Source: Mobula hypostoma | Taxonomy: Eukaryota | Direction: 5' to 3' | Assembly: GCF_963921235.1 (NCBI RefSeq) | Contig: NC_086107.1 | Location: 111,044,001 to 111,108,000 of the forward strand | Length of the DNA stretch: 64,000 nucleotides | In this document: positions 422 through 64,000 of the stretch, one piece after another | Layout of the letters: every line of letters begins with the position of its first letter | How positions within the stretch are numbered: the stretch's first letter is position 1 | Translations under genes and position numbers: made by a program | The notes under the pieces: generated by a model | The model's database searches: none | Told to the model about the DNA's origin: nothing | What the model saw: only the letters and a program-made list of their open reading frames with translations

Positions 422-627
422 GTCGGGAAGTGGGAGGCAAAAAGACTGACCATGAAGTACCACGTCTGGCCCCGGTACTACTTGTTCTCGGAGTCGGAAG
501 AGGAGGACGACCACCTGAGCATTGTCACGTTGGAGGAGGCGCCCTTCGTCATCGTCGAGGACGTGGACTCGCTGAGCGGGACCTGCATGAGGAACACGGT
601 CCCCTGCAGAAAGCAAGTGAAGCCAAT
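422..627 (+). CDS. GRIN2B: NMDA receptor GluN2 (GRIN2B-like) internal exon A, 206 bp: end of ATD / start of S1
   Basis: Acceptor tgtgtgcag|GTC and donor AT|gtacgt. Encodes [19 protein letters not shown]...[40 protein letters not shown], a recognisable GluN2 motif. Paralogue identity is uncertain (see findings). Confidence 0.93.
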
Positions 628-661
628 GTACGTATCAACCGCCCTGCCCCACTTTGGGTTA

Positions 662-2762
662 GAGGTAACACTCACAGCCCGCTGGAGGAACTCAGCAGGT
701 CGGGCAGCATCCGTGGAAAAGATCGGTCGACGTTTCGGGCTGGAACCCTTCGTCAGGACTGTATGGGGAAGGGGCAGAGGAGAAGGCTGGGGGGAGGGTG
801 CGAAGGAGAAGGCTAGTAGGTTCCAGGTGAAAAACCAGTAAGGGGAAAGATAAAGGGGTGGGGGAGAGGAGGCAGGGAGGTGATAGGCAGGAAAGGTGAA
901 GAAGGAATAGGGGAAAACATAATGGGTAGTAGAGAGAGGCGGAACCAAGAGGGAGGTGATAGGCAGCTGGGGGAGGGGGCAGAGTTTCATAGGGATAGGG
1001 GAAGGGAGGGGGAAGGAATTACCAGAAATTGGAGAATTCTATATTCATTACAAGGGGCTGGAGACTACCTAGACGGTATATGAGGTGTTGCTCCTCCAAC
1101 CTGAGTTTAGCCTCATCATGGTAGTAGAGGAGGCCATGTATGGACATATCTGAATGGGAGTGGGAAGCAGAGTTGAAGTGGGTGGCTACTGGGAGATCCG
1201 GTCTGTTGTGGCGGACGGAGTGGAGGTGCTCGACGAAGCGGTCCCCCAGTCTGCGTCGGGTTTCACCGATGTAGAGGAGGCCGCACCGGGAGCACCGGAT
1301 GCAATAGATGACCCCAACAGACTCACAAGTGAAGTATTGCCTCACCTGGAAGGACTGTTTAGGGCCCTGAATGGTGGCAAGAGAGGAGGTGTAGGGACAG
1401 GTGTAGCACTTACGCTTACAGGGATAAGTGCCGGGTGGGAGATCAGTGGGGATGGACGTGTGGATAAGTGAGTCGCGGAGGGACCGATCCCTGCGGAAGG
1501 CGGAGAGGGGTGGAGAGGGAAAGATATGCTTAGTGGTGGGGTCCTGTTGAAGGTGGCGGAAGTTGTGGAGGATAATGTGCTGGATCCGGAGGCTAGTGGG
1601 GTGGTAGGTGAGGACAAGGGGAACTCTGTCCCTGTTGTGGTGGCAGGAGGATGGGGTGAGGGCCGAAGTGCGGGAGATGGAGGAGATGCGGGTGAGGGCA
1701 TCATTGATGACAGCAGAAGGGAAACCACGATCCTTAAAGAAAGAGGATATTTGAGATGTCCTGGAATGGAAAACCTCATCCTCGGAACAGATGCGGTGGA
1801 GACGGAGGAACTGGGAATAGGGAATGGCATTTTTGCATGTGGCGGGGTGGGAAGAGGTATAGTTGAGGTAGTTATGAGAGTCAGTGGGCTTGTAGAAGAT
1901 GTCAGTGGACAGCCTGTCTCCAGAGATGGAGACCGACAGATCGAGAAAGGGGAGAGAAGTGTCAGAGATACACCAAGTGAATTTGAGGGCTGGGTGGAAG
2001 TTTGAAGTAAAATCGAGGAAATTGACGAGCTCAGCATGGGTGCAGGAAGCAGCACCAATGTAGTCATCAATGTATCGAAGGAAAAGTTGGGGAGCAGTAC
2101 CAGAATAGGTTTGGAGCACAGGCTGTTCCATGTAACTAACGAAGAGGCAGGCATAGCGGGGTCCCATGCAAGTTCCCATAGCTACACCTTTAGTCTGAAG
2201 AAAGTGGGAAGAGCCAAAAGAGAAGTTATTAAGTGTGAGAACCAGTTCCGCCAACCGGAGGAGGGTAGTGGTGGTGGGGAACTGGTGAGGTCTATTATCC
2301 AGAAAGTAGCTGAGGCTTTGAGGCCTTCTTGTTGGGGAATGGAGGTGTATAAGGATTGGACATCCATAGTAAAAATGAAGCGGTCGGGACCGGGGAACTG
2401 GAAGTTATTGAAGAGGTGGAGGGCATGGGATGTATCCCGGATGTAGGTGGGGAGGGACTGAACTATGGGTGACAAAATGGAGTCCAGGCAGGCAGGTACA
2501 AGTTCGGTGGGGCAGGAGCAGGCAGAAACTATGGGTCTGCCGGGACAGTCAGGCTTGTGGATCTTGGGGAGGAGGTAAAACCGAGCGGTGCAGGGTGTGG
2601 GAATTATGAGCTTAGTGGCTGAGGATGGAAGGTCTCCAGAGTTGATAAGGGCGGTGATGGTATGGGAGACAAGGGTTTGATGTCTTTTGGTGGGGTCCTG
2701 TTCCAGGGGTAAGTAAGAGGAGGTGTCAGAGAGCTGCCGTTTGGCCTCTGTGAGGTCGAGGT
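662..2762 (-). mobile_element. Penelope-like retroelement, 5'-truncated and frameshifted (RT + GIY-YIG endonuclease), with 3' terminal region
   Basis: ORFs 2182-2475 (FTMDVQSLYTSIP) and 1019-2254 (GVAMGT, RYIDD, LLYIGETRRRLGDRFVEH) lie in different frames. They are followed by a pyrimidine-rich 3' region and a hammerhead motif. Confidence 0.9.
725..760 (-). ncRNA. Minimal type-I hammerhead ribozyme motif
   Basis: Minus strand reads AGUC-CUGACGA-A-GGG(UUCCAG)CCC-GAAA-CGUC/GACC. It has a complete catalytic core, stem II, a palindromic ACGU stem III and GUC/GAC stem I. Confidence 0.8.
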
Positions 2763-2915
2763 CTCAGCTGCAGCACAAACATGTGAGGAACCGCCCAGGG
2801 TGAACTCCCACCTCTTCGCAGAAGTGCACAAGAGTCAATGTTGAGTAGCGGGGAGGTTTATTCTCTCTGCTAATCAAGGGGAAATCCAACACATTTTCTG
2901 CAAGGACCCAATATA

Positions 2916-3488
2916 TACTCAGTGGCCACTTTATTGCGCACCTCCTGGACTTGATAAAGTGGCCACTGAGGGTATGTTTGTGGCCTTCCGCTTCTGTCGC
3001 CCAGCCACTCTAAGGTTAGATGTGCTGTTCATTCAGGAATGCTCTTCTACCCACCACTGATGTAACATGTGGCTATATGAGTTACTGCCACCTTCCTATC
3101 AACTTGAAACAGTGGGGTCATCCTCCTCTGATCTCTCTCATTAACAAGGCAATTTTCCTCACAGAACTGCTGCTCACTGGATTTAAAAAAAAAAAAATTT
3201 CACACCATTCTCTGTAACTCTAGAGACTGTTGTGTGTGAAAACCCCAGGAAATCAGCAGTTTCTGAGATACTCTAACCTCCCCATCTGGCACCAACAATC
3301 ATTCCATGGTCAAAGTTATTTAGATATCATTTCTTCCCCATGCTGATATTTAGTCTGAACAACAACTGAACCTCTTGACCATGTCGGCATGCTTTTATGC
3401 ATTGAGTTGCCACCACACGATTCGCTGATCAGATACTTGCATTAACAAGCGGGTGTACAGGTGTACCTAATAAAGTGGCCACTGAGTG
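2916..3488 (-). mobile_element. Non-autonomous Tc1/mariner derivative
   Basis: TIR (C)ACTCAGTGGCCACTTTATT / AATAAAGTGGCCACTGAGTG in TA context. The interior is homologous to the transposase HTH remnant at 48490-48744. Confidence 0.85.
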
Positions 3489-11348: not shown

Positions 11349-12123
11349 CACTCAGTAGCCACTGAGTGTATGTTCACGGTCTTCTGCTGCTGTAGCCCGT
11401 CCACTTCAAGGTTCGACATGGTCTGCATTCAGAGATGCTCTTCTGCACATCACTGTTGTAAAACATGGTTATTTAAGTTACTGTCACCTTCCTGTCAGCT
11501 TGAACCAGTCTGGCCATTCTCCTCTGACCTCCCTCATTAACAAGGCCTTCTTTCCCTCTGTCATCTGTTTTCCTAATGGACATTGAACCCACAATCACTA
11601 CCTCACTACTTTTTTATTTATGTTTTTTTTTGCATTACTTATTTTAACTTAACAATTTAATATACAAATACATACTTATTGTAATTCAACTTTTTTCTCT
11701 ATATTTATTTATTATGTATTTCATTGTACTGCTGCAGTAAAGTTTACAAATTTCATGACACATGCCGGTGATATTAAACCTGGTTCAGATTCCGATTCGC
11801 CTACAGAACCGCCACTCACTGGAAGTTTTTTTTTGTTTCTCGCACCACTCTCTGTAAACTCTAGACACTGTTGTGGTTGAAAATCCCAGGAGATCAGCAG
11901 TTTCTGAGATACTCAAACCACCCCATCTGACACCAGCAATTATTCCATGGTCAAAGTCAGTCACTTAGATCACACGTCTTCCCTATTCCGATGTTTGGTC
12001 TGAACTACAACTGAACCTCTTGACCACGTCTGCGTGCTTTAATGCATTGAGTTGCTACCATATGATTGGCTGATTAGATATGTGCTTTAACGAGCAGGTG
12101 TATCTAATAAAGTGGTCATGGTG
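11349..12123 (-). mobile_element. Tc1 derivative, interrupted by a LINE tail (~11545-11797)
   Basis: Same family as 2916-3488. Confidence 0.8.
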
Positions 12124-13473
12124 TTTATGGAGGAAGCTAAATAAAATTTCCAAAATATTGCCAAATTGACACTTACCATGTGCAAAAAGGAGGGGAAAGA
12201 CTAAGCCCAGTGTTGAGAGTTGAAATCCTGCAAGAATCTCGAGGCAGACGGGTCACACCACCACCTCACTGGAACCAGCCTGCCCACCACCAAGGACGTA
12301 TATACAGAAAAGTGCCAGAAAATGGCCAGCAATACTACAAAGGCTCCCACCCACTCTGCTCAACGACTGTTTGTCCCACTCCCATCAGGGAAGAAGCTAT
12401 GTAGCATTCATGCCAGGACCACCAGTCTCAAAAACAGTTATGTTCCCCAAACAGTGAGGCTGATCAACAACTCCATCCAATAACCCACCCCTCCACACCT
12501 CCACCACCACTACTTTATTATTTCCTGTCAGTCACCTTATGTACAGACGCTCCTGCGCTGAGCATCACTTCACGGACATATAATCAATCTATGTATATTA
12601 TATCGGCTCTCTTATGCATTTATATTTATTGTGTTTTTATTATTGTGCAAAAGAGGACAAATTGTGCAAGTAATCAATATTAAAAAATAAATAAATAATA
12701 CTGAGAACATGAATTGTAGTGTCCTTGAAAATGAGTCAATAGGCTAGGGAGTCAGTTCAACGTTGAAGTGAGTGATGTTATCCACACTGTTTCAGGAACC
12801 TGACGGTTGAGGGGTAATAACTATTGTTGATTGGTTAAAAATCATCTCAATAAACTTCTTTAGATAGATAGATAGATATACTTTATTGATCCCGAGGGAA
12901 ATTGGGTTTCGTTACAGCCGCACCAACCAAGAATAGAGCATAAATATAGCAATATAAAAACCACAAACAATCAAACAACAAAATGCAAACTATGCCAGAT
13001 GGAAAATAAGTCCAGGACCAGCCTATCGGCTCAGGGTGTCTGACCCTCCACGGGAGGAGCTGCAAAGTTCGATGGCCCTTTAGGTTCTTAATTAACTAAG
13101 TGAAGCCTCTTAGTTTAACATAAAGTACTCAGGGTGATGTCCCATCTGTACCTGATCCTTGCCAGCTTTGGGCTTCATGAATCTCAGAGGAATTAATCAT
13201 CTCACACATACTACTGGCTAGCGGAGAAATGCTTCTAACATCACCCCAAGGCTCTGGCTCTCATTGTATGGTTCAAGACTCTTCTGCCAAAAGAAATGAT
13301 CTGCTGTCCAGGCATGTAATCAAGTCTGCAAAACATCTTGAGCAGCTTAGTGGATCAACCCATGTCTTTATTCTTTGTGCATGTGCTTTTCTTATTTAAC
13401 CCGGTGGTGAGGGGATTGTGCCGTTTAACCGGAGGGTTGCCATGGCAATAACAGTCTTGCTCTTTGTTGCCAG

Positions 13474-15787: not shown

Positions 15788-17931
15788 GAATGGCATTCTG
15801 GTTGAATGCCCTAGTCAGGGGATATTTCATTAATTCTGTTATAGTTATTATTCTATAGACTTGTTGAGTATGCCCACAAGAAAATGAAATCCAGGGTTGT
15901 ATGTGGTGACGTATATGTACTTTGATAATAAAATTTACTTTGAACTTTTGAACTTTGTTATCATTACCTCATCAATCAAAAAATTATTTTTTTTTCCTGA
16001 CCCCCCTCAATGCATTTCAATTATAGTTCTCTTGTTTATTTCTAAGATGCATGGAGTCTCATATTGTAAGAAACAGTAAAATATGGAACACCAGCCCAAT
16101 GTGAATGAAAGCCACATTGGAAATAGGTCTTAGTTTAAATCCTGGAACACTTTACCCAACAGCGCCATGACAACAGCTTCACTGGGGTGACTCTGTAAGA
16201 CAAACACAAGTGGGGAAGGATATTAAATCCTGGTCTTATCTTCAATGTCTATGACCCAAGAATGAATAAAGAAAAATCTAGATCTAGGCAACTTGTGAGT
16301 GACCTAAGCACGTACCAGCTCCACAGAATGAAAGGAGGATCTCAAACTCCTGATGCTGTGATTGCCGCGATTCTCAAAAGAGAGATTAAAGATTAGTTTT
16401 ACTTGTCGCGGGAGCAATTTCCTCCAATCCCTGACCTCATTAAAGAGAGAGACGAGACTAGCATTATTTGTCACATGCACATCGAAAGTTCAAAACATGC
16501 AGTGAAATGTGTTGTTTCGTGTCAGCGACCAGCCCAGTCCGAGTAGGTGCTGGAGGAAGTCTGCAAGTGTTGCTATGCTACTAGTAGCAACATAGCACGC
16601 ACACAACTTTCTAACCCTAACCTGGATGTCTTTTGGAGTGTGGGAGAAAACCAGAGCACCAAGAGGAAACCCACAGGGAAAATTGTACAAACTCCTTTCA
16701 AACAATGGCAGGATTTGAACCCCAATCTTCTGATCACTATTGCAGTAAAGTGTTACACTAAACACCATGCTTCTGTGCCACCAGATATGTCATATTTCCT
16801 GGGATTGTCTATATCCCAGGAAAGATTCTCTAAAATGTTCCTTTTCTTGCCCGTACTGCCCTTGCTGAGGTGTAACAACAACTAGTCAGTCAGCCAAACT
16901 CCATTCAAAAATGACATGAGCGTCAGGGTATACCCTCCTCGTGCCTTGGGTTTATTGCAGACTCAAAAGTATGACATAGTGAATAAGGAATGAAACTGAA
17001 AAACAACAAAATACAGTGCAATTACTGTGTTTTTTCATTCACATGATATGCACAGGTAAGTAACAATTTAGTTAAGTTTCCTGCAGGTAAATACTCGAAG
17101 ATTCCGACAAGTAAGTACTACAGGTAAATAGCACGTGTAAACCATTGGCATCCAGATTAGTGTCTAATAAACTCAAAAATAATGTTCGATTTCAGCAACA
17201 TCTTAATGATACCTCTAGATTAAATTCTAAACAATATAATATCAACTTACAAGCAATGCCTCTGCTGGGGAAACAACAAGATGGCTTTAGGTAGAAGCTT
17301 CTTTCATTCCTAACATAAACCTCTGGCTTTCTGCCAGTCAAAGTGCTTTCTTACTTCCTTATTCCTGACTTAACAAGAAGTGACCTTATACAGATCTGAA
17401 ACTGCTCATTTCAAAATAAAAAATGAATGTGCTTAATCGTATAGAAAAAAACATAAATCAAATGCCTGAAGGGCAGAACGCTGTCCGTTCACCATTTCAT
17501 TGGGAAATGTTTCTGCATTCTGCTTTAGAGTCATGGCCTATGATAAAAATAATTTCAAAATGATGCTTCCTCTCAACATTATTCAATAGTGAAATACTAG
17601 TGACAGTGAGGTTCCAGGGACAATGACAGTGTGGTTCTAGTGACAGTGGGGGATTGTGAAACGTTAATGTGGATATTTATTTATTTACTGTCCGTACCAC
17701 TATCTGCTGGTGTTTAGGGCAGCAACTGAGATCCTCCATCTCTGTCTGTCTTTGGACATTCAGACATAAAAGGATTCTTCATTGGAAGAAGCACAGTCGA
17801 CGTTTCGGGCCAAGACCCAAGTCCTGACGAAGGGTCTCGGCCCAAAACATCAACTGTGCTTCTTCCTATGGATGCTGTCTGGCCTGCTGCGTTCCACCAG
17901 CATTTTGTGTGTGTTGCTTGAATTTCCAGCA

Positions 17932-20071
17932 GATTAGTTAAGGCATCCATTAGTCTTGCGAGATCATGGATCTGCACCTGGAAAGTCTTCACTCTCCAGG
18001 GAGTAGGCCTGGGCAAGGTTGTATAGAAACATAGAAACATAGAAAATAGGTGCAGGAGTAGGCCATTCGGCCCTTCGAGCCTGCACCGCCATTTATTATG
18101 ATCGTGGCTGATCATCCAACTCAGAACCCTGCCCCAGCCTTCCCTCCATACCCCCTGATCCCCGTAGCCACAAGGGCCATATCTAACTCCCTCTTAAATA
18201 TAGCCAATGAACTGGCCTCAACTGTTTCCTGTGGCAGAGAATTCCACAGATTCACCACTCTCTGTGTGAAGAAGTTTTTCCTCATCTCGGTCCTAAAAGG
18301 CTTCCCCTCTATCCTCAAACTGTGGCCCCTCGTTCTGGACTTCCCCAACATCGGGAACAATCTTCCTGCATCTAGCCTGTCCAATCCCTTTAGGATCTTA
18401 TACGTTTCAATCAGATCCCCCTTCAATCTTCTAAATTCCAATGAGTACAAGCCCAGTTCATCCAGTCTTTCTTCATATGAAAGTCCTGCCATCCCAGGAA
18501 TCAATCTGGTAAACCTTCTTTGTACTCCCTCTAAGGCAAGGATGTCTTTCCTCAGATTAGGGGACCAAAACTGCACACAATACTCCAGGTGTGGTCTCAC
18601 CAAGGCCTTGTACAACTGCAGTAGTACCTCCCTGCTCCTGTACTCAAATCCTCTCGCTATAAATGCCAGCATACCATTTGCCTTTTTCACCGCCTGCTGT
18701 ACCTGCATGCCCACTTTCAATGACTGGTGTATAAGGACACCCAGGTCTCGTTGCACCTCCCCTTTTCCTAATCGGCCACCATTCAGATAATAATCTGTTT
18801 TCCTATTTTTGCCACCAAAGTGGATAACTTCACATTTATCCACATTAAATTGCATTTGCCATGAATTTGCCCACTCACCCAACCTATCCAAGTCACCCTG
18901 CATCCTCTTAGCATCCTCCTCACAGCTAACACTGCCACCTAGCTTCGTGTCATCCGCAAACTTGGAGATGCTGCATTTAATTCCCTCATCTAAGTCATTA
19001 ATATATATTGTAAACAACTGGGGTCCCAGCACTGAGCCTTGCGGTACCCCACTAGTCACCGCCTGCCATTCTGAAAAGGTCCCGTTTATTCCCACTCTTT
19101 GCTTCCTGTCTGCTAACCAATTCTCCACCCACACCAATACCTTACCCCCAATACCGTGTGCTTTAAGTTTGCACACTAATCTCCTGTGTGGGACCTTGTC
19201 AAAAGCCTTTTGAAAATCTAAATATACCACATCCACTGGTTCTCCCCTATCCACTCTACTAGTTACATCCTCAAAAAATTCTATGAGATTCGTCAGACAT
19301 GATTTTCCTTTCACAAATCCATGCTGACTTTGTCCGATCATTTCACCGCTTTCCAAATGTGCTGTTATCACACCCTTGATAACTGACTCCAGCAGTTTCC
19401 CCACCACCGACGTTAGGCTAACCGGTCTATAATTCCCTAGTTTCTCTCTCCCTCCTTTTTTAAAAAGTGGGGTTACATTAGCCACCCTCCAATCCTCAGG
19501 AACTAGTCCAGAATCTAACGAGTTTTGAAAAATTATCACTAATGCATCCACCATTTCTTGGGCTACTTCCTTAAGCACTCTAGGATGCAGACCATCTGGC
19601 CCTGGGGATTTATCTGCCTTCAATCCCTTCAATTTACCTAACACCATTTCCCTACTAACATGTATTTCGCTCAGTTCCTCCATCTCACTGGACCCTCTGT
19701 CCCCTACTATTTCTGGAAGATTATTGATGTCCTCCTTAGTGAAGACAGAACCAAGGTAATTATTCAATTGGTCTGCTGTGTCCTTGCTCCCCATAATCAA
19801 TTCACCTGTTTCTGTCTGCAGGGGACCTACATTTGTCTTTACCAGTCTGGAAGACCAGCAGTTGCCCATGCTGCAAGTCTCCCCTCTCCACGACACTGAT
19901 GTTGTCCAAGGGAAGAGCAAGAGCCGATACAGCTTGGCACCAGTGTCGTCGCAGAGCACTGTGTGGTTAAGTGCCTTGCTCAAGGACACAACACGCTGCC
20001 TCTACTGGGGCTCGAACTCACGACCTTCAGGTCGCTAGTCGAATGCCTTAACCACTTGGCCACGTGCCCAC
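17932..20071 (-). mobile_element. tRNA-derived SINE (family of 9550-9865) split by the CR1 at 18025-19848
   Basis: ...gggcaaggttgtat | ggaagaccagcag... rejoin to match the intact copy. Confidence 0.85.
18025..19848 (-). mobile_element. Young 5'-truncated CR1 LINE with open RT
   Basis: Uninterrupted ORF from 19848 to 18121 ([39 protein letters not shown]). The 3' tail is an 8-bp repeat, (AGAAACAT)n on the + strand. Confidence 0.95.
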
Positions 20072-20600
20072 ATTAAATCTGCAGATTACCTCGTGTTTGA
20101 GGATTCTTCATCGCTGTTACCATAACAATTTTGTTTTACCAGTTGGGATTGTTAGCCTTCAGCTGAACTGAACCTGAAAGACTAGTGGGCCACTCTTAGT
20201 CTGGTGGTTACCCCTTGACCTGTTTGGCATGGGTGACCTTACCAAGAACCAAAGCATAAAGCCCTGACTCTAACCAGCGTAGTTCTCCAGGTCATTAAGA
20301 CATGCAAGCCTCCAAGCCATGGCAAGAGTTAAGGTTCTCTTGGAGGTAATGTGGGTAATACCATTAGATTTCTGAATGGACAATGAACCAACCCATGGAC
20401 ACTACCTCACTAATTTTTGCTCTACTTATCTAATTTTTTTAAATATATACAAATATTCCGTTTTATAATTTGTAGCTTTTTTTGGAAATTGCTCTGTACT
20501 GCTGCCGCAAAGCAACAAATGTCATTGGAAGTGCCAGAGATAAAAAGCCTGATCCTGTTTAAGTCATGGACTTTCACCGCCTTATTTTGGTCTGTTACAG

Positions 20601-20726
20601 AGCCGTTCAGTGCCGACGTCTGGGTGATGATGTTCGTGATGCTTCTGATTGTCTCGGCTGTCGCAGTCTTCGTCTTTGAGTACTTCAGCCCTGTGGGATA
20701 TAACCGGTGCTTGGCCGATGGAAGGG
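20601..20726 (+). CDS. GRIN2B: GluN2 exon D, 126 bp: M1 helix
   Basis: gttacag|AG and G|gtaagc. Encodes [42 protein letters not shown], which is GluN2B-type. Confidence 0.96.
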
Positions 20727-20914
20727 GTAAGCTGATGCTTTTGCACTACGCACTCTTGTCCACTCCTCCTCTGCCCACTGTGCAGCGGCTGCAAAGCTTA
20801 ATGAAGTTATTGGTCTCTGTTAGTGTGGTGGAGCTGTGGTGGACCAGTGACTTCCACTGCTGTTTCATTGTGTTGGAGTTCATTACACATCTTTGTAGGT
20901 CATTCAGAATGTAA

Positions 20915-23280: not shown

Positions 23281-23737
23281 TACTGTACCATTTTATTTGG
23301 TACACCTGCACACCTGCTTGTTAATGCAAATATCCAATCAGCCAATCATATGGCAGCAACTCAATGCATATAAGCATGCAGACATAGTCAAGAGGTTCAA
23401 TTGTTGTTCAAACCAAACATCAGAATGGCGAAGAAATGTGACTTTGACCATGGAATGATTGTTGCTGCCAGACGGGGTGGTTTGGTTATCTCAGAAACTG
23501 CTGATCTCCTGGGACTGCACACACGACAGTGTCTAGAGTTCATGGAGAATGGGGAAAGACATTAAAAAAAACATCCAGTTGACAGGAAGGTAACAGTAAC
23601 TTAAATAACCACACATTACAACAGTGGTGTGCAGAAGAGCATCTCTGAATGCAAAGCATGTTGAACCTTGGTGGATGGGCTGCAGCAGCAGAAGACCATT
23701 AGGTTCAAGAGATACCTAATAAAGTTGTTGCTGAGTT
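23281..23737 (+). mobile_element. Tc1 derivative
   Basis: Reverse-orientation, internally deleted copy of the same family. Confidence 0.75.
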
Positions 23738-27384: not shown

Positions 27385-27755
27385 AGGGATTCTACAGATG
27401 CTGGAAATCCAGAGCAACACACATAAAATGCTGGAGGAGCTCAGCAGGTCAGGCAGCATCTGTGGAATTCAATAAACAGTCCACGATTCGGGCCAAGACC
27501 CTTCTTCAGGACTGGAAAAAGGGAGAAGACGCCAGAGTAAAAATGTGGGGGGAGGGGAAGGAGGCAACGGTTTTAGGTGAAGCCGGGTAGGTGGGAGAGG
27601 TAAAGGGCTGGAGAAGAAGGAACCTGATAGGAGAGGAGAGTGGACCATGGGAGAAAGGGAAGGAGAAGGGGACCCAGAGGGAAGTGATAGGTAGGTAAGA
27701 AGAAGTAAAAGGCCAGAGTGGGGAATAGACGAAAAGGAGTGGGGGAGAGAAAAAT
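27385..27755 (-). mobile_element. Penelope-like terminal fragment
   Basis: Shares the cagatgctggaaatccagagcaacacacataaaatgctggagg terminus and has a decayed hammerhead at 27478-27513. Confidence 0.8.
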
Positions 27756-30240: not shown

Positions 30241-31696
30241 GTTCATACATGGTGCCAGACCCACAGCAACTTGTTAACTCTTTCTCCAAACAGTTAAAGG
30301 TTTCCCCTGGTGTAATGTTGAATCAGGTTCACGGGTCCGGCGAGTGAGACAGGAAATGCGCTAACTTTGAATAGGTACATTAATCATTTATTTTTAAACA
30401 GTAAAAATTCGACTAAACATTCACGTTCCCCAAGTTACAGATACTACAAACCTGAATATTCAACAAACATACTTAATTAAAAATGTACACAGAGCATACC
30501 TTCCCAATGGCCATGTGCGTCCTTGCCTTAAACAAAGGAAGACGACAGCAAGCCCCTTCCACGTATTATTTTACATAGCCCGGATATTTGAAACTGGACG
30601 CCAGGCAGCCATCCAACGGGAAAAGCAACTGTAGTTTCTAAACTAACCAATCACCATGGAAGCAACTTTGGACAATCAGAATAAGGCACGCCCGCACAGG
30701 ACAGCTGGGTGCTCTGGTTTCTTCACACAATGCAAAGACGTACGGTTCGGGGTAGTGAGTCATGGGCATGCTACGGTGCCACTGGAAGGGCAGCGACACT
30801 TGTTAACTCTTTGGGCTGCCCAGCACAATCCTCACTGATTGATACAGGTCAATGTACTGTATGGTTTGATGTACAGGTGACAAATAACTCTCCTTTGTGT
30901 CACCTTGTCGGGGCTGTACTTAGCAACGCATTGACCTTAACTGCCCTCTGAAATGCCAAGCAAGCTCTTCAGTTCAGGGATAACTAGGGTTGGAGATAAG
31001 TGTTGGGGATCTCGTATAAGTGACTTAAAGAAAGATGGCATTCTGTCCTCCCAACATCACCCATCTGACCAAACCTTGCTCAGCTGTCCTGAAACTTAGG
31101 TACAATGATGGATCAATTAAAATCTGCAAGAGTCCTACATCAGAGGAGTGCAGAGATCAAGAAACCTTTCGGGTGGAAAGGGTCTCGGCCCGAAATGCTG
31201 ACTGTTTACTCATTTCCATAGATACTGCCTGACCGGCTGAGCTCCATAGGCAAGAAAAGTTTGGGATGAAGAGGAAAGTCCACGTAGGGATTTGAGAACA
31301 AAACAAGAAACTTTGAAATTGAGATACTAACGTTCTGGGAATTGGAGCGTTCAGTAAACAAAAGTGTAGTGTGGATCAGAAGGATACTCCATCCCTTGTG
31401 AATTGGTGACCGATATTTTCACATGATGTCACTGTCAGATGCCTTCTGCTATTTTTAAATTTGTTCTTGATAAGTGATATTTGGTTCAATTGCCTTCCAT
31501 AGAATGAGTGGTTCCTCTGCCAGACAGAAGTAACGTGGACAGGAAGGTAAATAAGGCAGTACAGTAGATTAGCAGTTAGCGTAACACTTTACAGTGCAAC
31601 GCGTAAGATCGGGGTTCAATTCCCTCCATCACCTGTAAGGAGTCTGCACGCTCTCCCCATGCCTGTATGGGTTTCCTCCCACATTCCAAAGATGTA

Positions 31697-39514: not shown

Positions 39515-40190
39515 AAAACAAGAGAAAATCTGCAGGTGCTGGAAGTTCCAGCAATACACCCAAAATGTTGGAGGAACTCAGCAGGTCAGGCAGCATCTAT
39601 GGAAAAGAGTGAACAGACGACGTTTCAGGTCGAGACCCTTCATCAGGACTGGGAAAAAAGAGAGATGAGAAGTCAGAGTAAGAAGGTTGGGGGAGGGGAG
39701 GAAGAAGTACAGGGTGGTAGGTGACAGGTGAAACCAGGAGAGGGGATGTGGTGGAGTAAAGAGCTGGGAAGCTGATCGGTGAAGAAGATAATGGGCTGGA
39801 AAATGAGGAATCTGACAGGAGAGGGTAGAAGATCATGGAAGAAAGGACAAAGAGAAGAACACTAGAGGGAGATGATGGACAGTGAAGGAGTAAGGTGAGA
39901 GACAGAGATGGGAATGGAGAATGGTGAAGGGAGGGGTGGGGCATTAACCAGAAGTTTGAGAGATCAGTTCATGCCATCAGCTTGCCCAGACGAAATATAA
40001 GGTGCTGTTCCTCCAACCTGACTGTGGCCTCATCGCAGCAGTAGAGAAGGCCGTGGACTGACATGTCGGAATGGGAATGGGAAGTAGAATTGAAATGGAT
40101 GGCCACCAGGGGATTCCGCTTTTTCTGGCAGACGGAGTGCAGGTGCTCGGCGAAGCGGCCTCCCAATCTATGTCAGGTCTCACCGATGTA
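39515..40190 (-). mobile_element. Penelope-like 3' fragment
   Basis: ORFs with LYIGET and FAEHLHSV...EEQHLIFRLG, plus the terminus with a hammerhead. Confidence 0.85.
39614..39650 (-). ncRNA. Minimal type-I hammerhead motif (core intact, stem I mismatch)
   Basis: Minus strand reads AGUC-CUGAUGA-AGGGUCUCGACCU-GAAA-CGUC/GUCU, within a Penelope 3' end. Confidence 0.7.
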
Positions 40191-40290: not shown

Positions 40291-43200
40291 AGAAACATAG
40301 AACATAGAAGAGTACAGCACAGGAACAGGCCATTCGGCCCACAGTGTTGTGCTGTACCAGCTAAAAAGCAAATCAAAAACACCCAAACACTAATCCCTCC
40401 TACCTACACAATAGACAATAGACAATAGATGCAGGAGTAGGCCATTCAGCCCTTCGAGCCAGCACCACCATTCACTGTGATAGAAACATAGAAACATAGA
40501 AAATAGGTGCAGGAGTAGGCCATTCGGCCCTTCGAGCCTGCACCACCATTTATTATGATCATGGCTGATCATCCAACTCAGAACCCCGCCCCAGCCTTCC
40601 CTCCATACCCCCTGATCCCCGTAGCCACAAGGGCCATATCTAACTCCCTCTTAAGTATAGCCAATGAACTGGCCTCAACTGTTTCCTGTGGCAGAGAATT
40701 CCACAGATTCACCACTCTCTGTGTGAAGAAGTTTTTCCTAATCTCGGTCCTAAAAGGCTTCCCCTTTATCCTCAAACTGTGATCCTTCGTTCGTCCCCAA
40801 CATCGGGAACAATCTTCCTGCATCTAACCTGTCCAATCCCTTTAGGATTTTATACGTTTCAATCAGATCCCCCCTCAATCTTCTAAATTCCAACGAGTAC
40901 AAGCCCAGTTCATCCAGTCTTTCTTCATATGAAAGTCCTGCCATCCCAGGAATCAATCTGGTGAACCTTCTTTGTACTCCCTCTATGGCAAGGATGTCTT
41001 TCCTCAGATTAGGGGACCAAAACTGCACACAATACTCCAGGTGTGGTCTCACCAAGGCCTTGTACAACTGCAGTAGTACCTCCCTGCTCCTGTACTCGAA
41101 TCCTCTCGCTATAAGTGCCAGCATACCATTTGCCTTTTTCACCGCCTGCTGTACCTGCATGCCCACTTTCAATGACTGGTGTATAAGGACACCCAGGTCT
41201 CGTTGCACCTCCCCTTCTCCTAATCGGCCACCATTCAGATAATAATCTGTTTTCCTATTTTTGCCACCAAAGTGGATAACTTCACATTTATCCACATTAA
41301 ATTGCATCTGCCATGAATTTGCCCACTCACCCAACCTATCCAAGTCACTCTGCATCCTCTTAGCATCCTCCTCACAGCTAACACTGCCACCCAGCTTTGT
41401 GTCATCCGCAAACTTGGAGATGCTGCATTTAATTCCCTCATCCAAGTCATTAATATATATTGTAAACAACTGGGGTCCCAGCACTGAGCCTTGCGGTACC
41501 CCACTAGTCACCGCCTGCCATTCTGAAAAGGTCCTGTTTATTCCCACTCTTTGCTTCCTGTCTGCTAACCAATTCTCCACCCACACCAATACCTTACCCC
41601 CAATACCGTGTGCTTTAAGTTTGCACACTAATCTCCTGTGTGGGACCTTGTCAAAAGCCTTTTGAAGATCCAAATATACCACATCCACTGGTTCTCCCCT
41701 ATCTACTCTACTAGTTACATCCTCAAAAAATTCTATGAGATTCGTCAGACATGATTTTCCTTTCACAAATCCATGCTGACTTTGTCCGATCATTTCACCG
41801 CTTTCCAAATGTGCTGTTATCACATCCTTGATAACTGACTCCAGCAGTTTCCCCACTACCGACGTTAGGCTAACCGGTCTATAATTCCCCGGTTTCTCTC
41901 TCCCTCCTTTTTTAAAAAGTGGGGTTACATTAGCCACCCTCCAATCCTCAGGAACTAGTCCAGAATCTAATGAGTTTTGAAAAATTATCACTAATGCATC
42001 CACTATTTCTTGGGCTACTTCCTTAAGCACTCTAGGATGCAGACCATCTGGCCCTGGGGATTTATCTGCCTTCAATCCCTTCAATTTACCTAACACCACT
42101 TCCCTACTAACAAGTATTTCACTCAGTTCCTCCATCTCACTGGACCCTCTGTCCCCTACTATTTCTGGAAGATTATTTATGTCCTCCTTAGTGAAGACAG
42201 AACCAAAGTAATTATTCAATTGGTCTGCCATGTCCTTGCTCCCCATAATCAATTCACCTGTTTCTGTCTGTAGGGGAACTACATTTGTCTTTACCAGTCT
42301 TTTCCTTTTTACATATCTATAAAAGCTTTTACAGTCCGTTTTTATGTTCCCTGCCGGTTTTCTCTCATAATCTTTTTTCCCCTTCCTAATTAAGCCCTTT
42401 TTCCTCCTCTGCTGAACTCTGAATTTCTCCCAGTCTTCAGGTGAGCCACTTTCTCTGGCTAATTTGTATGCTTCTTCTTTGGAACTGATACTATCCCTAA
42501 TTTCTCTTGTCAGCCACGGGTGCACTACCTTCCTTGATTTATTCTTTTGCCAAACTGGGATGAACAATTGTTGTAGTTCATCCATGCAACCTTTAAATGC
42601 TTGCCATTGCATATCCACCGTCAATCCTTTAAGTGTCATTTGCCAGTCTATCTTAGCTAATTCACGTCTCATACCTTCAAAGTTACCCCTCTTTAAGTTC
42701 AGAACCTTTGTTTCTGAATTAACTATGTCACTCTCCATCTTAATGAAGAATTCCACCATATTATGGTCACTCTTACCCAAGGGGCCTCTCACAACAAGAT
42801 TGCTAATTAACCCTTCCTCATTGCTCAAAACCCAGTCCAGAATAGCCTGCTCTCTAGTTGGTTCCTCGACATGTTGGTTCAAAAAACCATCCCGCATACA
42901 TTCCAAGAAATCCTCTTCCTCAGCACCTTTACCAATTTGGTTCACCCAATCTACATGTAGATTGAAGTCACCCATTATAACTGCTGTTCCTTTATTGCAC
43001 ACATTTCTAATTTCCTGTTTAATACCATCTCTGACCTCACTACTACTGTTAGGTGGCCTGTACACAACTCCCACCAGCGTCTTCTGCCCCTTAGTGTTAT
43101 GCAGCTCTACTCATATCGATTCCACATCTTCCCGGCTTATGTCCTTCCTTTCTATTGCATTAATCTCTTCTTTAACCAGCAACGCCACCCCACCTCCCCT

Positions 43201-45386: not shown

Positions 45387-47616
45387 ATAGAACCATAGAA
45401 ACTACAGCACAGAAACAGGCCCTTTGGCCCTTCTTGGCTGTGCCGAACCATTTTCTGCCTAGTCCCACTGACCTGCACACGGACCATATCCCTCCATACA
45501 CCTCCCATCCATGTATCTGTCCAATTTATTCTTAAATGTTAAAAAAGAACCCGCATTTACCACCTCGTCTGGCAGCTCATTCCACACTCCCACCACTCTC
45601 TGTGTGAAGAAGCCCCCCCTAATGTTCCCTTTAAACTTTTCCCCCCTCACCCTTAACCCTTGTCCTTTGGTTTTTTTCTCCCCTTGCCTCAGTGGAAAAA
45701 GCCTGCTTGCATTCACCCTATCTATACCCATCATAATTTTATATACCTCTATCAAATCTCCCCTCATTCTTCTATGCTCCAGGGAATAAAGTCCTAACCT
45801 ATTCAACCCTTCTCTGTAACTGAGTTTCTCAAGTCCCGGCAACATTCTTGTAAACCTTCTCTGCACCCTTTCAACCTTATTTATATCCTTCCTGTAATTT
45901 GGTGACCAAAACTGAACACAATACTCCAGATTCGGCCTCACCAATGCCTTATACAACCTCATCATAACATCCTAGCTCTTATACTCAATACTTTGATTAA
46001 TAAAGGCCAATGTACCAAAAGGTCTCTTTACGACCCTGTCTACCTGTGACGACACTTTTAGGGAATTTTGTATCTGTATTCCCAGATCCCTCTGTTCCAC
46101 TGCACTCCTCAGTGCCTTACCATTAACCCTGTATGTTCTACGTTGGTTTGTCCTTCCAACGTGCAATACCTCACACTTGTCAGTATTAAACTCCATCTGC
46201 CATTTTTCAGCCCATTATTCCAGCTGGTCCAAGTCCCTCTGCAGGCTCTGAAAACCTTCCTCACTGTCTACTACACCTCCAATCTTCGTATCATCAGCAA
46301 ACTTGCTGATCCAATTTACCACATTATCATCCAGATCATTGATATAGATGACAAATAACAATGGACCCAGCACTGATCCCTGTGGCACACCACTAGTCAC
46401 AGGCCTCCACTCAGAGAAGCAATTCTCTACCACCACTCTCTGGCTTCTTCCATCGAGCCAATGTCTAATCCAATTTACCACCTCTCCATGTATACCTAGC
46501 GACTGAATTTTCCTAACTAACCTCCCATGCGGGACCTTGTCAAAGGCCTTACTGAAGTCCATGTAGACAATATCCACTGCCTTCCCTTCATCCACTTTCC
46601 TGGTAACCTCCTCGAAAAACTCCAACAGATTGGTCAAACATGACCTACCACGCTCAAAGCCATGTTGACTCTCCCTAATAAGCCCCTGTCTATCCAAATG
46701 CTTGTAGATTCTGTCTCTTAGTACTCCCTCCAATAACTTACCTACTACTGACGTTAAACTCACCAGCCTATAATTTCCCGGATTACTTTTCGATCCTTTT
46801 TTAAACAACGGAACAACATGAGCCACTCTCCAATCCTCCGGCACTTCACCTGTAGACAGTGACATTTTAAATATTTCTGCCAGGGCCCCCGCAATTTCAA
46901 CACTAGTCTCCTTCAAGGTCCGAGGGAACACTCTGTCAGGCCCCGGGGATTTATCCACTTTAATTTTCCTCAAGACAGCAAGCACCTCCTCCTTTTCAAT
47001 CTGTACAGTTTCCATGGTCTCACTACTTGATTCCCTCAATTCCATAGATTTCATGCCAGCTTCCTTAGTAAATACAGACGCAAAAAACCTATTTAAGATC
47101 TCCCCCATTTCCTTTGGTTCCGCACAAAGCCGACCACTCTATCTTCAAGAGGACCAATTTTATCCCTTACAATCCTTTTGCTCTTAATATACTTGTAAAA
47201 GCTCTTTGGATTATCCTTCACTTTGACTGCCAAGGCAACTTCATGTCTTCTTTTTGCCCTCCTGATTTCTTTCTTAAGTATTTTCTTGCACTTCTTATAC
47301 TCCTCAAGCACCTGATTTACCCCGTTTCCTATACATTTCATACAACTCCCTCTTCTTCTTTATCAGAGTTGCAATATCTCTTGAGAACCAAGGTTCCTTA
47401 TTCCTATTCAATTTGCCTTTAATCCTGACAGAAACATACAAACTCTGCACTCTCAAAATTTCCCCTTTGAAGGCTTCCCACCTACCAATCACATCTTTGC
47501 CAGAGAACAACCTGTCCCAATCCACGCTTTTTAGATCCTTTCTCATTTCTTCAAATTTGGCCTTCTTCCAGTTCAGAACCTCAACCCTAGGACCAGATCT
47601 ATCCTTGTCCATGATC
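45387..47616 (-). mobile_element. CR1 LINE (second family), 5'-truncated, with stops and frameshifts, inserted into an older CR1 fragment
   Basis: RT ORFs 46215-47108, 45972-46196 and 45459-45965. AAATTCC is duplicated at 45380-45386 and 47617-47623. The host CR1 spans about 45145-47890. Confidence 0.93.
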
Positions 47617-49655: not shown

Positions 49656-49849
49656 AACACGAGGAAATCTGCAGATGCTGGAAATTCAAGCAACACACAC
49701 AAAAATTGCTGGTGAACGCAGCAGGCCAGGCAGCATCTATAGGAAGAGGAACAGTCGATATTAAGGGCCGAGGGTTTCGGCCTGTAACGTTGACTATACC
49801 TCTTTCTATAGATGCTGCCTGGCCTGCTGCGTTCACCAGCATTTTTTTG
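49656..49849. mobile_element. Fold-back Penelope-terminus derivative with a 13-bp TSD
   Basis: TCTTTAGAATGGA at 49643-49655 and 49850-49862. Inverted arms at about 49700-49770 and 49776-49849. Inserted into a CR1 fragment. Confidence 0.8.
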
Positions 49850-60104: not shown

Positions 60105-60517
60105 GAATCTAATAAAGTGGCCACTGAGTGTATGTTCATGGTCTTCTGCTGCTGTAGCCCATCCATTTCAAGGTTCGACGTGATGTGCGTTCAGAGATGC
60201 TCTTCTGCACACCACTATTGTAACGTGTGGTTATTTCGCATCATTCTCTGTAAACTCCAGAGAGTGTTGTGTGTGAAAACCCTGGGAGATCAACGGTTTC
60301 TGAAATACTCAAGCCACCCCATCTGGCACCAACAATCATTCCACGGTCAAAGTCGCTTAGATCACACTTCTTCCCCATTCTGATGTTTGGTCTGAACCAG
60401 AACCGAACCTCTTGACCATGTCTGCATGCTTTTATGCACTGAGTTGCTGCCTCACGATTGGCTGATTAGATATTTGCATTAATGAGCAGGTGTACCTAAT
60501 AAAGTGGCCATTGAGTG
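60105..60517 (-). mobile_element. Tc1 derivative (another fragment at ~59425-59570)
   Basis: Same TIR and interior as 2916-3488. Confidence 0.8.
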
Positions 60518-61101
60518 TAGCGTGTGGCAAACAGGAAAGCAGTCGAACCCGAAGGCACCGTTGCCGCATCGCTGGCATTACTGCCAGACCACTGGCAGCA
60601 TTGGTACTAGTAGTGGTGTTGTGATCACTCAAGTCGAGTTTGACATTCTCCTACTGCATTATTCCCTTAATTGAGAATGGCTCTGTGTGTGACTTTGGCG
60701 GGGGGGCAGGGGTGAGGCTGATGCATGGGCAGCCACCTTTACAGATCGGGGTCAGGGTCCATTGACATGGAAGATGAGATGACTGGGGACCATTCGCTGC
60801 TGCAGCCTTCTGTCATCTTCTCTGCCGTTGTGATGTGGCATCATCTCCTACCAGCCCCACCACCGAGCTCTTGGTTGGACGGCTCTTTGTCCGGAACCAC
60901 ACCATCCCCCTTGACCTCACCGCCAAGGGTGACCCTCCCAGGAGCTAAGCGCCAGATGGCAAAAGTCCAGACGGCATCGCTGTCGGGTTCTCAGGATTTC
61001 ACAGGACTCTCCACCGCCACGTGGTGACAATCCTCGTACAGTGTGACACGCACAGAGCCTCCAGTATAATCGTGCACGTGGGCACGTATGCTGGATTAAT
61101 G

Positions 61102-62904: not shown

Positions 62905-63402
62905 CTGAACCTTTTCATCTCTGCTTTCTGCATCTGCGATGATATTGGTGTCTGAAAGCACCCACATAAGGTGTTAGAACATAGAACAGTACAGGCCCTT
63001 CAGCCCACAATGTTGTGCCGACCCTTTAACCCACTACTCACATACCCCTCCATTTTTCTTCCATCCATGTACCTATCAAAGTGCCTCTTAAATATGCCTA
63101 ATATATCTGACTCTACACCACCCCTGGCAACGCGTTCCATGCCCCTACCATTCTCTGTGTGAAAAAAACTACTTTTAACACACCCTCCCCATACTTTACT
63201 CCAAAGATCTTAAGAGTTATGCCTTCTCACTTTAGCTATTTTTACCCTGGGAAAAAGTCTGTGGCTGTCCACTCTACCTGTTTGTCTTATCATTACTGTA
63301 GAAAAAATAGAGTTCAGTCCCTTGGCCATCACCTGGTAACCTTGTAACCAGTCCCTGATGAACTGGAATTAGTAACAGGTTTATTATCACTGTTTATTAT
63401 GC

Positions 63403-64000
63403 TTTCTCCGTAACTTCCGCCACCTCCAACGGGATCCCACCACTAAGCACGTCTTTCCCTCCCCCCCCCCTGCATTCCGCAGGGATCGCTCCCTACGCAA
63501 CTCCCTTGTCCATTCGTCCCCCCCATCCCTCCCCACTGATCTCCCTCCTGGCACTTATCCATGTAAGCGGAACAAGTGCTACACATGCCCTTACACTTCC
63601 TTCCTTACCACCATTCAGGGCCCCAAACAGTCCTTCCAGGCGAGGCAACACTTCACCTGTGAGTCGGCTGGGGTGATATACTGTGTCCGGTGCTCCCGAT
63701 GTGGCCTTTTATATATTGGTGAGACCCGACGCAGACTGGGAGACCGCTTTGTTGAACACCTGCGCTCTGTCCGCCAGAGAAAGCAGGATCTCCCAGTGGC
63801 CACACATTTTAATTCCACATCCCATTCCCATTCTGACATGTCTATCCACGGCCTCCTCTACTGTAAAGATGAAGCCACACTCAGGTTGGAGGAACAACAC
63901 CTTATATTCCGTCTGGGTAGCCTCCAACCTGATGGCATGAACATCGACTTCTCTAACTTCCGCTAATGCCCCACCTCCCCCTCGTACCCCATCTGTTACT
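63403..64000 (+). mobile_element. Penelope-like 3' fragment with open GIY-YIG domain, running off the window
   Basis: ORF 63673-63966 (IYCVRCSRCGLLYIGETRRRLGDRFVEH...IDFSNFR*) is closely similar to the C-terminus of 1019-2254. Confidence 0.9.

Follow-up and report, generated by a model that had tools for sequence, protein, structure and literature searches.

The kind of motif considered here, its place in Penelope-like elements (PLEs) and a dimer model for its activity were published in 2014 (Cervera and de la Pena 2014, PMC4209133), and what we describe is at most a new member of that family. The accessible part of that paper reports that the Schistosoma motif did not cleave as a monomer and cleaved at a low level as a dimer. 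For the anole motif, the consulted text of Frangieh et al. 2024 (PMC11167929) describes cleavage that proceeds with the help of protein and that in vitro insertion can do without: in this one reconstituted PLE, insertion was equal with a dead ribozyme, and RNA-seq showed no read ends at the cut site of the element. As far as the available text of Craig et al. (bioRxiv 10.1101/2021.04.23.441226) goes, truncated copies in inverted orientation are known from PLEs and a C-x(2-5)-C-xx-C linker marks the Neptune and Nematis clades. Non-LTR retrozymes with hammerheads are described, in the accessible part of a further preprint, from one chondrichthyan genome (bioRxiv 10.64898/2026.07.22.740005).

We analysed a 64,000-nt stretch of Mobula hypostoma DNA (the window), in which a sequence-only reading had pointed to a minimal hammerhead near position 725. 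The reading that we favour, with a probability of roughly 85 %, is that this hammerhead lies in the 3′ pseudo-LTR (pLTR) of a truncated, frameshifted PLE, that active members of the family likely cut after GUC only when two copies pair or when assisted by protein, and that the lone antisense copy seen here is likely inert. Among the titles listed by literature searches on Penelope hammerheads, including those of sharks and other Chondrichthyes, none deals with this family, within a collection that lacks Repbase and most subscription journals.

The hammerhead at 724–761 and the element that carries it

The sequence-only reading had described a full minimal hammerhead on the minus strand, cut between 729 and 728, and the sequence is as it stated (Table 1). 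From 761 to 724 the minus strand reads CAGUC CUGACGA A GGGU UCCA GCCC GAAA CG UC/GACCG (slash, predicted cut between 729 and 728), with every hammerhead core letter present: CUGACGA at 756–750, GAAA at 736–733, CG at 732–731 and UC at 730–729. This is the CUGANGA ... GAAA ... UH core of PLE minimal hammerheads (min-HHRs), in which A749 is the additional base that follows position 9 and precedes 10.1, while G748–C737 is the G10.1–C11.1 pair. Stem III is, as claimed, loopless and palindromic (ACGU, 733–730), the CG at 732–731 forming a palindromic 15.2/16.2 with no loop 3. Stem II (748–745/740–737), first read as 3 bp, in fact has 4 bp, including one U.G pair, and a 4-nt loop. The 3 bp given for stem I (761–757/728–724) are contiguous, but an A.C mismatch followed by a C–G pair extends the stem. 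At the mismatch position, U is present in 8/8 of the other listed copies that keep it, giving 5 bp in the majority, and the pairing letter makes up 47 % of the summed depth in contigs of sequencing run X1.

An exact-pattern scan of the window returned one match (0/100 shuffles), and a strict descriptor (core letters, three or more pairs in each of stems I and II, and a pairable 15.2/16.2), applied to both strands, matched 724–761 only, against a mean of 0.01 in 100 dinucleotide shuffles. Rfam returned 12 matches at E≤5, with no hammerhead among them, and the motif departs from the canonical Rfam type-I hammerhead, which has a looped stem III and a 6-bp stem I with tertiary loop contacts, in having no loop 3, a short stem I and no Rfam score. 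Exact DNA patterns of the motif gave no matches in viral contigs or in prokaryote genomes, and a protein search of viral contigs confirmed none of five candidates.

Table 1. Coordinates of the features discussed, as positions in the 64,000-nt window
Feature	Position	Strand	Basis or remark
GluN2 (GRIN2A/2B-type) coding exon of host gene	422..627	plus	phmmer vs PDB, AG...GT bounds
Element tail past cut site, common to other copies	661..723	minus	BLAST, alignment, nhmmer
Minimal type-I hammerhead	724..761	minus	sequence, descriptor, shuffles, alignments
Pyrimidine-rich 3′ untranslated part of pseudo-LTR, stop codon to hammerhead	762..1018	minus	
Penelope-like ORF remnant, RT + C-terminal GIY-YIG	1019..2763	minus	ORF list, tblastn, Pfam
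Head-to-head pair of ORF-less ends, junction inside hammerhead	17780..17870		39-nt arms, 87 %
Second copy with all core letters (listed as 39614)	39619..39646	minus	fails strict descriptor
ORF-less ends joined head-to-head, centre in stem II	49701..49847		71-nt arms, 87 %, 5 nt apart

The placement at a Penelope-type terminus holds: the hammerhead lies 263 nt past the stop codon of an RT and GIY-YIG ORF remnant, in which an unbroken frame of 433 aa includes YIDD, the linker C-x3-C-x2-C and, at the C-terminus, the VIY...YIG endonuclease. Searches by tblastn with full-length relatives revealed a frameshift near 2300–2320 and a 5′ truncation at about 2763, so that about 240–400 N-terminal residues of the relatives are missing. 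Over 432 aa the remnant shares 50 % identity with P0003, a relative of 904 aa, and PF26215 is listed for 60 of its 62 longer relatives; its own Pfam matches (GIY-YIG, E 5e-4; RVT_1, E 7e-3) are both weak and under the curated cut-offs. The linker between RT and endonuclease is conserved in the alignment of the window ORF with its relatives, and by this linker, which Nematis shares, the element may be Neptune-type. The outer boundary of the tail is approximate (650–680). The tail was considered as a possible ORF start and dropped; tblastn with 11 full-length relatives matched no tail. No full-length element with both pLTRs was found in the window.

The exon that had been placed about 100 nt from the motif is confirmed as GluN2, matching GluN2B/2A chains (phmmer against PDB, E 4e-27) and ending 98 nt from 725, with the element antisense in the following intron. 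As the motif is antisense to this gene, host pre-mRNA carries its reverse complement, and the closeness to the exon is without evident meaning. Contigs bearing on this locus came from runs X1, X5, X9 and X17 (of 24 listed), and they can show neither RNA ends nor strand; the X17 contigs do not cover the exon. Contigs from two organism labels span the exon into the tail (560–707 and 560–701), suggesting that the insertion may predate the split of these organisms. In X9, a single run whose type was guessed to be RNA, unique-flank cover stops at about 627, the exon end. Further along the window, the 20414–20914 (+) frame, for which Pfam returned no match, holds a stretch that we take to resemble a further GluN2 exon (transmembrane region).

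Structural selection across related loci

An alignment-based search of metagenome contigs returned 437 relatives, the best 80 of which were used. In these 80, the strict descriptor matched 22 times (17 sense and 5 antisense, one of the latter a poor long-loop match), against 0–1 matches per shuffled set (20 sets). The endonuclease end was mapped in 46 loci; six with less than 200 nt of flank were left out, and 40 were scored. A hammerhead-like motif lay at +85 to +162 behind the endonuclease in 23/40, with an exact core in 15, and on the opposite strand in none of the 40; in the remaining 17/40, all with at least 200 nt of flank, our search pattern found no motif. Among ten loci with an N-terminal match, four (L008, L019, L027 and L036) have a motif that either precedes the ORF or coincides with its start, which fits a repeat at both ends of the element. 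The relatives carry either 5′ motifs (these four) or 3′ motifs, none having both in one locus, and the window copy is itself 5′-truncated.

Covariation was assessed on 15 aligned motifs, comprising two from the window and 13 from loci selected for family breadth. All 15 can form the closing pair of stem I, with four pair types represented; true partners were paired in 82 % of cases compared with 20–42 % for slid partners, and there were 38 double-change cells compared with 13.5 after shuffling (0/500 shuffles as high). The descriptor that supplied most of this set itself requires paired stems, and kinship inflates shuffle tests; a pairing-blind test is fairer. For 19 distinct exact-core matches retrieved with no pairing rule, such a test found 45/57 stem-I positions paired, against 22 with shuffled partners (0/10,000), and CG occupied 15.2/16.2 in 14 of these 19 motifs. 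The motif is under structural selection at the family level, across related families. It is there, and not among the window copies, that the stem covariation which the sequence-only reading had proposed to look for was seen.

The motif in L009, L068 and L079, all fetched as relatives of the RT, is the Acropora digitifera Neptune hammerhead of Fig. S3 in Cervera and de la Pena 2014, which may link the window element indirectly to Neptune. One metagenome contig (L019:319-3729) holds an intact 1136-aa PLE ORF with a tandem repeat on both flanks; the hammerhead, at 338, follows shortly after the first ATG of this ORF, and the frame thus reads through the motif. In four loci (L065:2394, L074:1129, L039 and L063), C replaces U4 in the core (CCGAC..), reflecting either decay or a recurrent core variant.

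Copies in the window and abundance in the genome

About ten homologous motifs had been listed for the window (725, 4409, 17820, 26630, 27478, 31178, 32951, 38791, 39614 and 49770); BLAST and alignment support the homology of all ten, and there are three further matches, namely 6085 (tail only) and inverted halves at 17818 and 49777. The profile search of the window gave these 13 matches (nhmmer profile built from the ten listed copies and the tail-only 6085; one weak row, E 0.36, dropped). All core letters are kept in two of the ten listed copies, 725 and 39614, and only 725 passes the strict descriptor, since in 39614 the basal pair of stem II is G.U and stem I contains a U.U mismatch. Elsewhere the damage varies: copy 4409 lacks the 5′ core, 17820 and 26630 are altered at G12 and G16.2, 27478 is altered at A15.1 and carries a G where the cut would fall, truncation reaches into the motif in 31178 and 49770, 32951 has a deletion across the cut site and 38791 is without CUGANGA. 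Preferential conservation of the core, on which the sequence-only reading had also staked its claim, was not seen among the window copies, with mismatches at 7/92 core and 39/330 tail positions (p=0.34, a small sample; gaps were excluded, as was the foreign 5′ sequence in two truncated copies). Such decay of the core at a rate indistinguishable from the tail is as expected for insertions that decay neutrally.

None of the 13 matches starts at the cut site; the sequence on both sides of it is kept in 11, while one is deleted across it and one is tail only. Inserted copies would therefore not derive from RNA cut there, unless it had been re-ligated, and this lack is consistent with the anole findings. 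Two of the 13 matches are clear cases of head-to-head units centred on the hammerhead (Table 1), and there may be a pause or template switch at stem II, which two cases cannot establish. A third inversion, suspected by eye at 31178, was not recovered by the repeat search.

Two same-direction PLE ends lie at 27694–27391 and 27338–26546 (−), both with broken hammerheads. The second starts in the endonuclease region, about 50 nt past the tail of the first, and the two represent either a partial tandem or an insertion beside an older copy. A head-to-tail retrozyme array was not found in the window, 27513 and 26665 being separated by an endonuclease fragment. At 63319–64000 (+), an endonuclease-coding PLE fragment has 80 % DNA identity to the 725 element, and its 3′ repeat runs past the end of the window.

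The claim of a very large genomic population of ribozyme motifs held for abundance only. From two DNA-type runs, about 47,000 contigs each align to 560–1160, and the summed depth over 728–748 is about 1.3e5 and 1.1e5 times the unique-flank depth in the two runs, a ratio that is a sign of a very abundant repeat only and gives no copy number. The population is mostly fossil, as 2/10 listed window copies keep the core, 1/10 is intact by the descriptor, and core decays like tail. A speculative and rather doubtful extension is that the genome holds some 100,000 copies of one hammerhead-bearing PLE end, well beyond the counts published for vertebrates, and that stem II is a preferred stall or template-switch site for the RT, yielding ORF-less head-to-head units. 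If so, the hammerhead would shape insertion structure from uncleaved RNA.

The window also holds unrelated repeats. A repeat with inverted ends at 2911–3482, likely of the small DNA-transposon type, has homologous pieces near 11354–12127, 23288–23441 and 60116–60519 and includes an Rfam mir-9256-like hairpin (2911–2977, below the gathering score). Long RT-type ORFs at 18121–20001, 40750–43110 and 45459–47138 presumably resemble LINEs of the CR1/L2 class; between the first and the second, the stretches compared agree to about 98 %, suggesting that these two are young.

Mechanism, alternatives and comparison with known systems

The minimum-energy fold of a single copy is a rod that joins the core GACG to the cut-site CGUC (−11.3 kcal/mol, compared with −7.3 kcal/mol for the open hammerhead fold); given this preference and the lack of a stem III in a lone copy, the monomer is predicted to be inactive. 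The two-copy minimum-energy fold from ViennaRNA differs from the active dimer, and the folding z-score of the motif (−0.65) is not significant. By analogy with what is published for other elements, a tandem pLTR-ORF-pLTR transcript could let its two copies form a common stem III from their ACGU palindromes; in active elements these copies would then cut slowly after GUC, trimming unit-length or circularisable RNA at a step other than insertion itself; alternatively, active members might cut with the help of protein. The copy at 725 is likely inert, judging from its strand, its isolation and its broken ORF.

It is unlikely, though it accounts for several observations, that the motif is kept mainly as a structural signal for the RT/endonuclease of the element (binding, pausing or template switching), with self-cleavage incidental. 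Core mutants of the anole motif leave insertion in vitro unchanged and RNA ends at its cut were absent from RNA-seq (PMC11167929, accessible part); in the window, both head-to-head junctions fall inside the hammerhead and no copy begins at the cut site. However, the letters that vary little or not at all between families are the catalytic ones of the hammerhead, whereas the stems swap freely. According to the same part of that paper, the anole motif does cleave, with dependence on C3/G8 and rescue, and the minimal RNA for anole insertion does not need the full pLTR.

Far less probable still is a host role that has kept the copy at 725 intact, for instance cutting an antisense transcript over the GluN2 exon. 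Despite the frameshift in its element, no other copy in the window matches the strict descriptor, and the exon-to-tail contigs of two organism labels would allow an old insertion, but those of organism B stop short of the hammerhead itself. The pre-mRNA, antisense to the motif, does not contain it, no partner copy lies nearby and no other copy shares the stem I mismatch; given that cores diverge by about 8 % per site (7/92), one or two intact cores in ten copies are unremarkable. Chance resemblance, to which the lack of an Rfam hammerhead match and the non-significant z-score might point, is already refuted by the descriptor results against shuffles, the fixed position and covariation in relatives, and the agreement with the published consensus.

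On the reading of a pLTR hammerhead in a decayed PLE, the single locus matters little, its motif, placement and dimer model having been published in 2014. The family could be used as an extensive set of natural mutants for asking what PLE hammerheads do in vivo, because copy ends, inversion junctions and core conservation by subfamily are countable over very many copies.

The closest likeness is to the PLE min-HHRs, as set out in the accessible part of PMC4209133: type-I topology, CUGANGA with one extra base, G10.1–C11.1 and GAAA, a palindromic 15.2/16.2 without loop 3, a short stem I, placement in the 3′ repeat of a 5′-truncated copy, and mostly single dispersed motifs with opposite-strand pairs. 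Stem II has 4 bp here, as in the Acropora Neptune motif, compared with 7–8 bp in Schistosoma. The species names consulted in Table S1 and Fig. S3 of that paper include no cartilaginous fish. Our crude depth ratio of about 1e5, which includes decayed copies, exceeds the 4,000 descriptor matches in coelacanth and 9,000 in Xenopus given there, but the two measures are not comparable.

With Neptune, as the available text of Craig et al. describes it, the element shares a single RT and C-terminal GIY-YIG ORF, the C-x(2-5)-C-xx-C linker, a hammerhead in the pLTR, a tail and inverted truncated copies; the window copy differs in being truncated and frameshifted. The anole element PAc (Poseidon, Anolis carolinensis; PMC11167929, accessible part) likewise has a pLTR hammerhead followed by a tail. 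Its clade is Penelope/Poseidon and its ORF start falls inside the hammerhead, unlike in the relatives L008, L027 and L036, where the conserved ORF start lies about 200 nt or more downstream. Non-LTR retrozymes, in the consulted part of bioRxiv 10.64898/2026.07.22.740005, resemble the window copies as ORF-less, hammerhead-bearing units related to PLE pLTRs. They form head-to-tail tandem units, whereas those in the window occur in head-to-head pairs or as truncated ends scattered along it, and the 725 copy, unlike a retrozyme, is joined to its ORF. Taken on its letters, the motif at 724–761 appears to have every min-HHR trait that can be read from sequence.
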